From Escherichia coli (GTDB lineage Bacteria > Pseudomonadota > Gammaproteobacteria > Enterobacterales > Enterobacteriaceae), in assembly GCF_022846255.1 (NCBI RefSeq), contig NZ_AP025682.1: a DNA stretch of 64,000 nucleotides; one strand, written 5' to 3'. The notes below the pieces were generated by a model, which was given only the letters and a program-made list of their open reading frames with translations, was not told the origin of the DNA and did no database searches. Made by a program: the position numbers and the translations under genes. Every line of letters begins with the position of its first letter. Position 1 is the first letter of the stretch. This document shows positions 6,696 to 45,230 of this stretch, piece after piece.

Positions 6696-6702
6696 AGTCA
6701 AC

Positions 6703-7398
6703 ATGTTAGAAGATCTCAAACGCCAGGTATTAGAAGCCAACCTGGCGCTGCCAAAACACAACCTGGTCACGCTCACCTGGGGCAATGTCAGCGCCGTTGA
6801 TCGCGGGCGCGGCGTCCTGGTGATCAAACCTTCCGGCGTCGACTACAGCATCATGACCGCTGACGATATGGTCGTGGTCAGCATCGAAACCGGTGAAGTG
6901 GTTGAAGGTACGAAAAAGCCCTCCTCCGACACGCCAACTCACCGGCTGCTCTATCAGGCATTCCCGTCTATTGGCGGCATTGTGCACACACACTCGCGCC
7001 ACGCCACCATCTGGGCGCAGGCGGGTCAGTCGATTCCAGCAACCGGTACCACCCACGCCGACTATTTCTACGGCACCATTCCCTGCACCCGCAAAATGAC
7101 CGACGCAGAAATCAACGGTGAATATGAGTGGGAAACCGGTAACGTCATCGTAGAAACCTTCGAAAAACAGGGTATCGATGCAGCGCAAATGCCCGGCGTG
7201 CTGGTCCATTCTCACGGCCCGTTTGCATGGGGCAAAAATGCCGAAGATGCGGTGCACAACGCCATCGTGCTGGAAGAAGTCGCTTATATGGGGATTTTCT
7301 GCCGCCAGCTTGCTCCGCAGTTACCGGATATGCAGCAAACGTTGCTGGATAAGCACTATCTGCGTAAGCATGGCGCAAAAGCCTATTACGGCCAGTAA
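6703..7398 (+). CDS. araD: L-ribulose-5-phosphate 4-epimerase
   Basis: 231 aa [41 protein letters not shown]... Confidence 0.96.
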
Positions 7399-7401
7399 TG
7401 A

Positions 7402-7417
7402 CTGTATAAAACCACAG
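7402..7417 (+). promoter_or_regulatory. LexA (SOS) box CTGTATAAAACCACAG upstream of polB
   Basis: CTGT-N8-ACAG consensus seen directly; polB (dinA) is a known SOS gene. Confidence 0.7.
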
Positions 7418-7432
7418 CCAGTCAACCAAAAC

Positions 7433-7459
7433 CAGGCTATACTCAAGCCTGGTTTTTTA
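7433..7459 (+). terminator. Rho-independent terminator after araD (ccaggct..agcctgg + T-run)
   Basis: Hairpin ccaggctatactcaagcctgg followed by tttttt. Confidence 0.65.
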
Positions 7460-7472
7460 TTGGATTTTCAGC

Positions 7473-9824
7473 GTGGCGCAGGCAGGTTTTATCTTAACCC
7501 GACACTGGCGGGACACCCCACAAGGGACCGAAGTTTCCTTCTGGCTGGCAACAGACAACGGGCCGTTGCAGGTTACGCTTGCGCCGCAAGAGTCCGTGGC
7601 ATTTATTCCCGCCGATCATGTTCCCCGCGCTCAGCATATTTTGCAGGGTGAACAAGGCTTTCGCCTGACGCCGCTGGCGTTAAAAGATTTTCACCGCCAG
7701 CCGGTGTATGGCCTTTACTGTCGCGCCCATCGCCAGTTGATGAATTACGAAAAGCGCCTGCGTGAAGGTGGCGTTACCGTCTACGAGGCCGATGTGCGCC
7801 CGCCAGAACGCTATCTGATGGAGCGGTTTATCACCTCGCCAGTGTGGGTCGAGGGTGATATGCGCAACGGCGCTATCGTTAATGCCCGTCTGAAACCGCA
7901 TCCCGACTATCGTCCGCCGCTCAAGTGGGTTTCTATTGATATTGAAACCACCCGCCACGGTGAGCTGTACTGCATCGGCCTGGAAGGTTGCGGGCAGCGT
8001 ATCGTTTATATGCTGGGGCCAGAGAATGGCGACGCCTCCGCGCTCGATTTTGAACTGGAATACGTCGCCAGCCGCCCGCTGCTACTGGAAAAACTTAACG
8101 CCTGGTTTGCGACTCATGATCCTGATGTGATCATCGGTTGGAACGTGGTGCAGTTCGATCTGCGAATGCTGCAAAAACATGCCGAGCGTTACCGTATTCC
8201 GCTGCGTCTGGGGCGTGATAACAGCGAGCTGGAGTGGCGCGAGCACGGCTTTAAAAACGGCGTATTTTTTGCTCAGGCCAAAGGGCGACTGATTATCGAC
8301 GGTATCGAGGCGCTGAAATCCGCGTTCTGGAATTTCTCTTCATTCTCGCTGGAAACCGTCGCTCAGGAGTTATTAGGCGAAGGAAAATCTATCGATAACC
8401 CGTGGGATCGAATGGACGAAATTGACCGCCGTTTCGCCGAAGATAAGCCTGCGCTGGCAACTTATAACCTGAAAGATTGCGAGCTGGTGACGCAGATCTT
8501 CCACAAAACTGAAATCATGCCGTTTTTGCTCGAACGGGCGACGGTGAACGGCCTGCCGGTAGATCGACACGGCGGTTCGGTGGCAGCGTTTGGTCATCTC
8601 TATTTTCCCCGTATGCATCGCGCTGGTTATGTCGCGCCTAATCTCGGCGAAGTGCCGCCGCACGCCAGCCCTGGCGGCTACGTGATGGATTCGCGACCTG
8701 GGCTTTATGATTCGGTGCTGGTGCTGGACTACAAAAGCCTGTACCCGTCGATCATCCGCACCTTTCTGATTGATCCCGTCGGACTGGTGGAAGGCATGGC
8801 GCAGCCTGATCCAGAGCACAGTACCGAAGGTTTTCTCGATGCCTGGTTCTCACGGGAGAAACATTGCCTGCCGGAGATTGTGACTAACATCTGGCACGGG
8901 CGCGATGAAGCCAAACGTCAGAGTAATAAGCCGCTTTCGCAGGCGCTGAAGATCATTATGAATGCCTTTTATGGTGTGCTCGGCACCACCGCCTGCCGTT
9001 TCTTCGATCCACGCCTGGCATCGTCGATCACCATGCGTGGTCATCAGATCATGCGGCAAACCAAAACGTTGATTGAAGCGCAGGGCTATGATGTTATCTA
9101 CGGCGATACCGACTCAACGTTTGTCTGGCTGAAAGGTGCACATTCGGAAGAAGAAGCAGCGAAAATCGGTCGTGCACTGGTGCAGCACGTTAACGCCTGG
9201 TGGGCGGAAACGCTGCAAAAACAACGGCTGACCAGCGCACTGGAACTGGAGTATGAAACCCATTTCTGCCGTTTTCTGATGCCAACCATTCGCGGGGCCG
9301 ATACCGGCAGCAAAAAGCGCTACGCCGGACTGATTCAGGAGGGCGACAAACAGCGGATGGTGTTTAAAGGGCTGGAAACCGTGCGCACCGACTGGACGCC
9401 GCTGGCCCAGCAGTTTCAGCAGGAGCTGTACCTGCGTATCTTCCGCAACGAGCCATATCAGGAATACGTGCGCGAAACCATCGACAAGCTGATGGCGGGC
9501 GAACTGGACACGCAGCTGGTTTACCGTAAACGCCTTCGCCGTCCTCTGAGCGAATATCAGCGTAATGTTCCGCCTCATGTACGCGCCGCTCGCCTTGCCG
9601 ATGAAGAAAACCATAAGCGCGGTCGCCCCTTGCAATATCAGAACCGCGGCACCATTAAGTACGTATGGACCACCAACGGCCCGGAGCCGCTGGACTACCA
9701 ACGTTCACCACTGGATTACGAACACTATCTGACCCGCCAGCTACAACCCGTGGCGGAGGGAATACTCCCTTTTATTGAGGATAATTTTGCTACACTTATG
9801 ACCGGGCAACTTGGGCTATTTTGA
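7473..9824 (+). CDS. polB: DNA polymerase II (GTG start)
   Basis: 783 aa [39 protein letters not shown]..., length and sequence match PolB. Confidence 0.96.
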
Positions 9825-20640: not shown

Positions 20641-21489
20641 ATGGCGACATACCTTATTGGCGACGTTCATGGTTGTTACGATGAACTGATCGCATTGCTG
20701 CATAAAGTAGAATTTACCCCTGGGAAAGATACCCTCTGGCTGACGGGCGATCTGGTCGCGCGCGGCCCGGGTTCGCTGGATGTTCTGCGCTATGTGAAAT
20801 CCTTAGGCGACAGCGTACGTCTGGTGCTGGGTAATCACGATCTGCATCTGCTGGCGGTATTTGCCGGGATCAGCCGCAATAAACCGAAAGATCGCCTGAC
20901 ACCGCTGCTGGAAGCGCCGGATGCCGACGAGCTGCTTAACTGGCTGCGTCGCCAGCCTTTGCTGCAAATCGACGAAGAGAAAAAGTTGGTGATGGCCCAC
21001 GCAGGGATCACGCCGCAGTGGGATCTGCAGACCGCCAAAGAGTGCGCGCGCGATGTAGAAGCGGTGCTGTCGAGTGACTCCTATCCCTTCTTCCTTGATG
21101 CCATGTACGGCGATATGCCAAATAACTGGTCACCGGAATTGCGGGGGCTGGGAAGACTGCGTTTTATCACCAACGCCTTTACCCGTATGCGTTTTTGCTT
21201 CCCGAACGGTCAACTGGATATGTACAGCAAAGAATCGCCGGAAGAGGCCCCTGCCCCACTGAAACCGTGGTTTGCGATTCCTGGCCCCGTTGCTGAAGAG
21301 TACAACATCGCCTTTGGTCACTGGGCATCGCTGGAAGGCAAAGGTACGCCGGAAGGTATTTACGCGCTGGATACCGGCTGCTGCTGGGGTGGTACATTAA
21401 CCTGCCTGCGCTGGGAAGATAAACAGTATTTTGTCCAGCCGTCGAACCGGCATAAGGATTTGAGTGAGGGAGAGGCGGTAGCGTCTTAA
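20641..21489 (+). CDS. apaH: Bis(5'-nucleosyl)-tetraphosphatase (symmetrical) ApaH
   Basis: 282 aa [46 protein letters not shown]... (metallophosphoesterase motifs GDVHG, GDLVARG, GNHD). Confidence 0.95.
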
Positions 21490-37763: not shown

Positions 37764-38159
37764 TTAACGACGCATACTCTTTGACAACATCATCTGCCAC
37801 TTCTGCTCGCGGTTAAGTTCCGTGAGCGGAACGGCAGGAATACGCGGCGTCTTTCTTACGCCGACTAATTTATCCCGGCTGTTATTGCGCAGACGCGCGT
37901 AAATTTGCTCATCGATATCAACCACTTTTACCAGTCGCTGGCACTGGCATCCCCGCCCTTCCAGCTTATTAGGGATCATCTTAACTTCGCAGCTTATTTC
38001 TGTGACTTCCGACAGAATATAAGTCAGGGTATTAACCGCCTTGCTGTGTTCAATATCGAAATGAATAGAGATCTCTCTTGCTATCACCCACCGGTTTTCA
38101 GCCATCATCCATTCGGCGATTAACAAATAGAGTGGTTTTTCAACACATCCTTCACACAT
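37764..38159 (-). CDS. caiF: Transcriptional activator of cai/fix operons CaiF (131 aa from MCEGCVEKPLYLL)
   Basis: ORF track 37764..38264; trimmed to recalled CaiF start. Confidence 0.88.
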   Translation of the reverse strand: MCEGCVEKPLYLLIAEWMMAENRWVIAREISIHFDIEHSKAVNTLTYILSEVTEISCEVKMIPNKLEGRGCQCQRLVKVVDIDEQIYARLRNNSRDKLVGVRKTPRIPAVPLTELNREQKWQMMLSKSMRR

Positions 38160-45165: not shown

Positions 45166-45230
45166 GTTTTCTCCATAAAAAATGCCGGTAACAAGACCGG
45201 CATTTTCGCATAACTTAGGCTGCTAATGAC

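Follow-up and report, generated by a model that had tools for sequence, protein, structure and literature searches.

The 74-bp spacer between araD and polB in this Escherichia coli DNA very probably holds two overlapping signals, each intended for different transcripts: an intrinsic terminator for araBAD and a LexA-controlled promoter for polB, the two sharing some of the same bases. This explanation draws on sequence features, on conservation, and on transcription starts transferred from K-12 and Klebsiella, with SOS induction taken from the literature. The locus is the classic dinA/polB SOS promoter and is already known; LexA site, araD terminator and polB promoter interleaved in this way are the ordinary, long-known arrangement in E. 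coli.

Organization of the araD-polB spacer

The window, here meaning the whole stretch of 64,000 nucleotides that was analysed, contains araD followed on the same strand by polB (Table 1), with the araD stop codon TAA read directly at positions 7396-7398. The AraD protein scores 445 bits against NCBIfam TIGR00760 (cut-off 389) and the DNA polymerase II protein scores 1791 bits, over its full length, against NF004420 (cut-off 1435); both identities agree with the RefSeq annotation of E. coli genomes that are nearly identical. A GTG start for polB is common to Escherichia, Salmonella and Citrobacter. Direct reading and the profile matches thus bear out the gene names, the GTG at 7473 and the spacer length given in a preliminary description of this locus. 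Over 4.1 kb, the window shares 99.2% identity with strain Combat2C1 and 96.3% with K-12. An Rfam search of the spacer found no family matches, and a minus-strand hit to C0465 (E = 0.85; 18 bits, gathering score 40) was rejected as chance.

Table 1. Features of the araD-polB region (positions are those of the window)
Feature	Position	Strand	Description and basis
araD CDS	6703..7398	+	L-ribulose-5-phosphate 4-epimerase; last gene of araBAD; ORF list
LexA operator core CTGTATAAAACCACAG	7402..7417	.	sequence, pattern search, HI-like score, conservation
-35-like hexamer CAGCCA	7415..7420	+	3/6 to TTGACA, 17-bp spacer; inferred from the -10 and the mapped TSS
predicted araBAD intrinsic terminator	7428..7458	+	folds, chance scan, conservation
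terminator A-tract AAAA	7428-7431	+	direct reading
terminator 5′ arm CCAGGCT	7432-7438	+	direct reading
polB -10 hexamer TATACT	7438..7443	+	-12 to -7; sequence, TSS spacing
terminator loop ATACTCA	7439-7445	+	direct reading
terminator 3′ arm AGCCTGG	7446-7452	+	direct reading
polB TSS (+1)	7450	+	T of 3′ arm AGCCTGG; K-12 coordinate 65803
polB 5′ UTR UGGUUUUUUAUUGGAUUUUCAGC	7450..7472	+	23 nt; length from Kim et al. 2012
terminator T6 run	7453-7458	+	direct reading
polB (dinA) CDS	7473..9824	+	DNA polymerase II, GTG start, 783 aa; ORF list

The two signals very probably coexist as follows. Transcripts from PBAD that have crossed araD would fold the hairpin (7432-7452) and be released at the U-run (7453-7458), which would end araBAD. 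The polB gene has a weak promoter of its own, with the -10 element (7438-7443) in the hairpin loop and the start (7450) in the 3′ arm. Its mRNA begins with UGGUUUUUU... and, starting inside the 3′ arm, is without the 5′ arm and so unable to form the terminator; the hairpin would act on araBAD-derived transcripts only. A LexA dimer on the operator core, at -48 to -33 as counted from the mapped polB start, would overlap the -35 region and exclude RNA polymerase, a mode of repression that is probably steric, and DNA damage would derepress polB by way of RecA-stimulated self-cleavage of LexA. The preliminary description had called the order of LexA box, terminator and polB start unusual. That judgement does not hold, as the layout is a normal one of operator/-35, -10 and +1, with the terminator of the upstream operon superimposed on the -10 and +1.

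The polB promoter and its start site

Transcription starts of polB have been mapped in K-12 and in Klebsiella and were transferred onto the window by sequence, the K-12 conversion being window position = 73253 - K-12 coordinate, with a spacer that is without indels. SMRT-Cappable-seq in K-12 reports a monocistronic operon b0060 with its TSS at 65803 on the reverse strand, and an independent, likewise genome-wide study, the K-12 TSS table of Kim et al. 2012, gives the same polB TSS and a 5′ UTR of 23 nt, read counts for polB being low in both sets (2 reads in Kim et al. 2012). In a UV tiling array of K-12 the transcript start maps to about 7447, and the K. pneumoniae polB start is the equivalent G of CCTGG, which is also in the 3′ arm and likewise fits the spacing to the -10. 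The polB start falls on a T, and its position may be 1-2 nt off. Comparison with mapped starts, which the preliminary description had proposed, therefore places polB initiation at 7450 and not upstream of 7402.

TATACT lies in the terminator's hairpin loop, with its first T also forming the end of the 5′ arm, and the two bases before it are G (-14) and C (-13). No recognisable -35 element was found at 16-18 bp, the best candidate being CAGCCA, and a consensus promoter scan reported no promoter in the spacer because this candidate matches at only three of six positions. The poor -35 is consistent with a weak promoter, which sigma-S may help, given the C at -13 and the RpoS dependence of polB that is quoted in the same source as its LexA regulon listing. 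An RpoS SELEX peak near polB, at 63256, is downstream of the gene and was discarded as irrelevant. Within the leader, GGA at 7462-7464 could act as a weak, purine-rich Shine-Dalgarno-like site, and folding of the first 26 nt of the polB mRNA gives no structure.

The comparative set comprised 80 of the 593 polB loci found by genome scan. Among 54 Enterobacteriaceae loci the -10 column is invariantly TATAAT or TATACT, the CTGTA, A, A and CAG columns of the LexA box are likewise invariant, and box and -10 lie 20 bp apart in 53 loci and 21 bp apart in the remaining one. This module of box, 20 bp and -10 persists where araD is no longer adjacent.

The persistence of the module, a discrete capped 5′ end in two data sets, the calling of a monocistronic b0060 operon by SMRT-Cappable-seq, the matching Klebsiella start, the canonical and invariant -10 at -12 to -7, and the induction of polB by UV and ciprofloxacin in arabinose-free media together argue against a reading in which most polB expression comes from transcripts that read through the araD terminator, with the LexA box as a roadblock to elongating polymerase. 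Intrinsic terminators are seldom 100% efficient, the box does lie upstream of the hairpin and directly past araD, and transcripts from a minor TSS inside araD (K-12 65946, window 7307) would cross both box and hairpin; with these points counted in its favour, the read-through account is still very unlikely. The earlier expectation that polB transcripts must either read through the structure or initiate within it is thus borne out in its second part, with the -10 in the loop and the TSS in the 3′ arm, and not in its first.

The probable araBAD terminator

The hairpin consists of a 7-bp stem with five G-C pairs, a 7-nt loop and a run of six T residues, and lies on the araD strand, its stem beginning 34 nt past the stop codon. 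The preliminary description had placed hairpin and T-run at 7433-7459; both are present, at coordinates 1 bp lower (7432-7458). The core has a fold energy of -10.8 kcal/mol, or -15.3 kcal/mol with the A/U extension, and the fold reaches -16.3 kcal/mol with z = -4.2. A scan for structures of this type (stem of 7 bp without mismatch and with 5 or more G/C, loop of 3-8 nt, 5 or more T among the 6 nt that follow) found two in the 64 kb, both strands included, versus 0.03 in shuffles. The built-in terminator scan of the spacer missed the hairpin, probably because the stem runs into its A/T flanks and uses up the T tail; a scan without stem extension into the A/T runs does detect it, and the miss was not taken as evidence of absence. 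From its sequence, the hairpin is predicted to bring about actual termination of araBAD transcripts. A Term-seq set covering three media (LB or M63 glucose, arabinose in none) contains no araD 3′ end, for which the arabinose-free media are taken as the reason. A literature search with the hairpin sequence returned nothing but an unrelated phage-display paper.

Of 36 loci with araD directly beside polB, 34 retain hairpin and T-run, versus 6 of 15 in which an insertion of 0.7-1.5 kb separates the two genes, and the median fold energies are -15.8 and -9.3 kcal/mol, respectively, in statistics that count related lineages as independent. Two Cedecea-type loci (L041 and L069) have another stem, GTGGTC/G(G/A)CCAC, in the same place, with pairing and T-run kept; in this lineage three to four stem pairs have been replaced compensatorily. 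The alignment-wide covariation score is not above shuffles (152/500), a non-significance that follows from a stem that is almost invariant. A simpler rule, that the hairpin is retained beside any co-directional upstream gene, was tried and given up as not clean: in Phytobacter the upstream ORF is co-directional and the hairpin is absent, and in some Citrobacter a weakened hairpin persists though the inserted ORFs run in the other direction.

These Citrobacter loci would also suit a hairpin that is an element associated with the polB promoter (a cruciform, a protein site, or a pair of Dcm-methylated CCWGG sites) and a T-run that is incidental, as would two features of the arms, namely that both are CCWGG sites and that the 5′ arm AACCAGGC is nearly invariant even where the 3′ arm has been lost. 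Such an element is nevertheless highly improbable in view of the textbook terminator geometry just past the araD stop, the keeping of 3′ arm and T-run beside araD and their decay with insertion, and the Cedecea-type stems, in which the sequence differs and pairing and T-run are retained. An araBAD terminator remains the preferred reading of the hairpin.

The LexA operator

The operator core is an exact match to CTGT-N8-ACAG at the place given in the preliminary description, 3 nt past the araD stop, and shares its final 3 bp with the start of the -35 hexamer. The 20-mer around it, GACTGTATAAAACCACAGCC (7400-7419), is identical to the opening of the -50 to +1 promoter string in the K-12 polB TSS table. 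The exact pattern occurs twice in the window versus 0.52 expected. A heterology-index-like (HI-like) matrix, derived from 17 published SOS boxes other than that of polB, gives the polB box a score of 12.59, the second best in the window, with about 2.2 such sites expected per 64 kb by chance and 0.0025 per 74-bp spacer. A log-odds matrix with small pseudocounts gave only 6.2 bits, because three bases of the polB box were unseen in the 17 training sites, and was dropped for the heterology-index formulation. The motif scoring that had been suggested earlier thus favours the site in so far as 12.59 falls below the permissive heterology-index limit of about 15 (a threshold quoted from the literature), but neither score is significant across the whole window. 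Taken alone, the motif score of the polB box is weak.

What convinces is the position of the box, its conservation across genera and the published SOS induction. Outside Enterobacteriaceae, 28 loci were compared, and most of them, including those of Erwinia, Pantoea, Yersinia and Serratia, have a LexA-like box upstream of polB. In K-12, a MEME SOS motif lies upstream of UV-induced polB, 46 nt 5′ of the induced transcript on the UV tiling array, ciprofloxacin induces polB with a log2 fold change of up to 2.38, and polB is included in the LexA regulon table. That the match is a palindrome arisen by chance and without regulatory function has next to no probability: its score is near the limit and of a kind expected about twice per window, yet the expectation for the spacer itself is minute, the core is invariant, keeps a fixed spacing to the -10 and recurs beyond the family, and SOS induction of polB is published.

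Comparison with known systems

At polB of K-12, the LexA 20-mer, hairpin, -10, T-run and GTG are identical to those of the window, the genes run araB-araA-araD-polB-rapA in both, and the spacer is also 74 bp long. Five substitutions separate the two spacers, none inside the named elements; the interval between box and hairpin reads CCAGTCAACCAA in the window and CCAATCAAACGA in K-12, and the stretch past the T-run reads TTTATTGG and TTTGATGG, respectively. The flanking genes are about 4% diverged from K-12, with no functional difference. Iwasaki (1990/1991), Bonner (1990) and Chen (1990) reportedly described the polB -35 as covered by a LexA site and the -10 as covered by a hairpin, and LexA is said to have been placed at polB by DNase I footprinting (Iwasaki 1991) and by ChIP-chip (Wade 2005).

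With the operators of recA, umuDC, sulA and dinB the polB box shares the CTGT-N8-ACAG pattern, an AT-rich spacer and overlap with the core promoter. It differs in being among the weakest LexA matches (12.59 versus 0.8-8 for most of the 17 sites), in having G at position 1, C at 13 and C at 20, each unseen there in the 17 comparison sites, and in lying further upstream than canonical LexA operators. Other terminators that overlap the next promoter resemble the present one in their GC-rich stem, the U-run that follows directly, the location just past a stop codon, and an embedded promoter whose own RNA is without the 5′ arm. Here, by comparison, the -10 is exactly the loop and the +1 is in the 3′ arm, and the combined terminator/promoter module is stable across Enterobacteriaceae genera. 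In Erwiniaceae and Yersiniaceae, polB has a LexA-like box upstream (CTGTATAAATAnnCAT), as in Enterobacteriaceae, but the box abuts a -10-like hexamer at 2 nt as opposed to 20 nt, and there is no upstream araD, hairpin or T-run.

Implications

A wider reading, which we consider unlikely, is that the overlay is a selected coupling of araBAD to polB, with a relocated LexA box and a 5′ arm that has a second function. If so, heavy araBAD transcription would modulate DNA polymerase II through LexA-independent read-through or promoter occlusion; the LexA operator would have moved from beside the -10, where Erwinia, Pantoea and Yersinia have it, to over the -35, a shift that would have accompanied the building of a terminator around the -10 in the ancestor of Enterobacteriaceae; and the second function would account for the invariance of the 5′ arm after loss of the 3′ arm.

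For the preferred reading, in which an araBAD terminator and a LexA-controlled polB promoter share bases, the significance beyond correct annotation is small, the SOS promoter of DNA polymerase II being well studied. Placing the start site explains what appears to be a terminator in the 5′ leader of polB, and the locus indicates that terminator scanners may overlook hairpins flanked by A/T runs. It also provides a cross-genus example of two signals written on the same bases, of which the terminator half decays once the upstream operon moves off.

Identity of the locus

Both proteins, AraD and DNA polymerase II, exceed their curated NCBIfam cut-offs by a wide margin, and 301 bp around the spacer find matches in 5400 of 5426 complete E. 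coli genomes, with araD and polB annotated there. Because of these annotations and the identities to E. coli genomes (99.2% to Combat2C1 and 96.3% to a K-12 derivative, 4.1 kb compared), the window is identified by its sequence as E. coli chromosome, in the orientation opposite to that used for K-12. In K-12, araD occupies 65855-66550 and polB 63429-65780. The 74-bp spacer aligns to K-12 without indels, with the LexA box, hairpin, -10 hexamer, T-run and start codon identical, and coordinates are therefore transferable (window position = 73253 minus K-12 coordinate). The araD stop, LexA box, polB GTG and spacer length are all present on direct reading as the preliminary description had them; its hairpin and T-run are present as well, but at 7432-7458 rather than 7433-7459 (1 bp off), and 3 nt separate the araD stop from the LexA box.

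Elements of the araD-polB spacer and their positions relative to the polB start (+1 = 7450)
Feature	Position	Strand	Relative to +1	Basis or remark
araD stop, TAA	7396-7398	+		sequence reading of 7200-7700
LexA core, CTGTATAAAACCACAG	7402-7417		-48 to -33	sequence; 3 nt after araD stop
-35-like hexamer, CAGCCA	7415-7420	+	-35 to -30	3/6
A-tract flanking hairpin, AAAA	7428-7431	+		sequence
Hairpin 5′ arm, CCAGGCT	7432-7438	+	-18 to -12	sequence
-10 hexamer, TATACT	7438-7443	+	-12 to -7	C at -13
Hairpin loop, ATACTCA	between arms	+		sequence
Hairpin 3′ arm, AGCCTGG	7446-7452	+	-4 to +3	sequence
T-run, TTTTTT	7453-7458	+	+4 to +9	sequence
polB GTG (ORF of 783 codons)	7473	+	+24	ORF list

Transcription start of polB

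The same polB start is found in two independent genome-wide 5′-end maps of K-12: SMRT-Cappable-seq gives operon b0060 a TSS at 65803 on the reverse strand (PMC6131387), and Kim et al. give 65803 with a 5′ UTR of 23 nt and the -50 to +1 string GACTGTATAAAACCACAGCCAATCAAACGAAACCAGGCTATACTCAAGCCT (PMC3415461). This start converts to the T of the 3′ arm, so that the mapped transcript data to which the preliminary description had looked place polB initiation downstream of the LexA box. In Klebsiella pneumoniae polB starts one base further along this arm (...TATAATCAGGCCTG; 5′ UTR of 24 nt), and in a UV tiling array the induced polB transcript lies 46 nt downstream of the SOS motif, at about window 7447. 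A second, minor TSS assigned to polB (K-12 65946, window 7307; Kim et al. 2012, PMC3415461) lies inside araD, 166 nt upstream of the GTG, and its transcripts would run through LexA box and terminator alike.

Taking 7450 as +1 places the -10 hexamer in the terminator loop and the start of polB RNA inside the descending arm. This RNA has no 5′ arm with which to pair, which removes the paradox of a terminator ahead of polB; its first 26 nt are predicted by folding to be unstructured. Of the two routes envisaged in the preliminary description, initiation within the structure is thus upheld. Three observations contradict polB mRNA arising chiefly from araBAD read-through: in both K-12 and K. pneumoniae the start is discrete and capped, the -10 hexamer does not vary, and polB is SOS-induced in the absence of arabinose. 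Some leak-through past the terminator is possible.

The hairpin and its conservation

The hairpin folds at -16.3 kcal/mol (z = -4.2), and perfect 7-bp GC-rich stems followed by at least 5 T in 6 occur at 2 places in 64 kb against 0.03 in shuffles, clearly more than chance. A built-in consensus terminator scanner applied to 6700-8200 did not report it, although it is the strongest terminator-like hairpin in that region, probably owing to stem extension into the flanking A/T runs. The only other such hairpin in the 64 kb, at 45182-45203 (minus strand; ATGCCGGTCTTGTTACCGGCAT then TTTTT), is presumably another intrinsic terminator. Both arms of the araD-polB hairpin contain CCWGG (Dcm methylation) sites, CCAGG at 7432-7436 and CCTGG at 7448-7452, which flank the polB -10 hexamer and start.

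A scan with one genome per species yielded 80 polB loci, which range from Escherichia to Yersinia and Serratia. The distance from LexA core to -10 is 20 bp in all 54 Enterobacteriaceae sequences save one with 21, and none of them varies in the columns CTGTA, CAG and TATA(A/C)T. Of the 36 loci (window left out) in which araD ends at most 400 bp upstream of polB, 34 show a terminator-like hairpin that surrounds the -10 hexamer and runs into a T-run, all but Pluralibacter gergoviae and one further locus, whose T-run is shortened. Where 0.7-1.5 kb is inserted between araD and polB, the hairpin is kept in only 6 of the 15 loci concerned (L005, L009, L010, L012, L014, L015, L023, L024, L031, L033, L036, L042, L045, L049 and L050). 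Both this difference (Fisher p = 7e-5) and that in median fold energy (-15.8 against -9.3 kcal/mol) treat related lineages as independent and are indicative only. The insertions differ among Salmonella, several Citrobacter, Phytobacter, Kluyvera, Leclercia and others. Their ORFs lie in some cases on the opposite strand and are in others co-directional, the latter with a seemingly membrane-associated protein of about 208 aa. In L017, L022 and L040 (Enterobacter, Leclercia) a repeated GC-rich element (...CCCCTCTGGGGAGAGGGCCGGGGTGAGGGG...) separates araD from the LexA box. It resembles an inserted intergenic repeat, and the hairpin is kept downstream of it.

At two Cedecea-type loci the stem in this position is another one, GTGGTC/G(G/A)CCAC, again with a T-run, and 3-4 of its pairs have been replaced in a compensatory way. 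Over the alignment as a whole covariation does not reach significance, since the stem is nearly constant. The 5′ arm and -10 block, AAACCAGG(C/T)TATAAT, is almost invariant (columns 34-49 of alignment A2) even with the 3′ arm and T-run decayed, as in L005, L023, L024, L033 and L045, which points to a further constraint on this arm, and may reflect promoter-spacer constraints. That the 5′ arm AACCAGGC stays nearly unchanged even after loss of its 3′ partner would suit a hairpin with a role other than termination, a reading contradicted by loss of the hairpin where araD has moved away.

In Erwinia, Pantoea, Yersinia and Serratia, polB loci have neither an upstream araD nor the hairpin. In these genera and relatives (L052-L082) the LexA-like box, CTGTATAAATAnnCAT, ends in CAT rather than the CAG of Enterobacteriaceae and adjoins a -10-like hexamer 2 nt away instead of 20 nt, so that operator geometry differs for the same gene.

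The LexA box

Exact CTGT-N8-ACAG occurs twice in the window against 0.52 expected. With a heterology-index-like matrix built from 17 other SOS boxes listed in PMC3009722, the polB box scores 12.59, comparable to the dinG, dinB and ftsK boxes. It ranks second in the window, and about 2.2 such sites are expected by chance per 64 kb (0.0025 per 74 bp). By score alone it is less clear than the hairpin, and the case for LexA function rests on position, conservation and published induction; a chance motif is contradicted by its conservation. The better-scoring 20-mer, CGCTGGGAAGATAAACAGTA (21409-21428, minus strand; 8.3), is probably a chance match because it lies within a 282-aa ORF (20641-21489), as probably is the second exact match, CTGTGACTTCCGACAG (38000-38015), because its spacer is GC-rich, unlike SOS boxes. 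Fernandez de Henestrosa et al. 2000 reportedly list the polB box and give it a heterology index of about 12.

Regulation and significance

In the proposed arrangement araBAD transcripts would end at the hairpin and U-run; the one 3′-end data set searched contains no araD 3′ end, which is attributed to cultures in LB or M63 glucose, not arabinose. polB is transcribed from a weak promoter of its own, where LexA on its operator would overlap the -35 region; DNA damage lifts repression. polB is induced by UV and by ciprofloxacin (log2 fold change up to 2.38), and a review listing the LexA regulon includes it and states that RpoS is required for its full expression, with which the -10 region CTATACT appears compatible.

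The arrangement, in which the dinA/polB SOS promoter lies on top of the araBAD terminator, is a textbook one and already known. A LexA site over -35 and a hairpin over -10 are said to have been described by Iwasaki et al. 1990 and 1991, Bonner et al. 1990 and Chen et al. 1990. Only the cross-genus pattern is mildly new: a spacing fixed at 20 bp, a terminator half that decays once araD is separated, and an operator placed differently outside Enterobacteriaceae.
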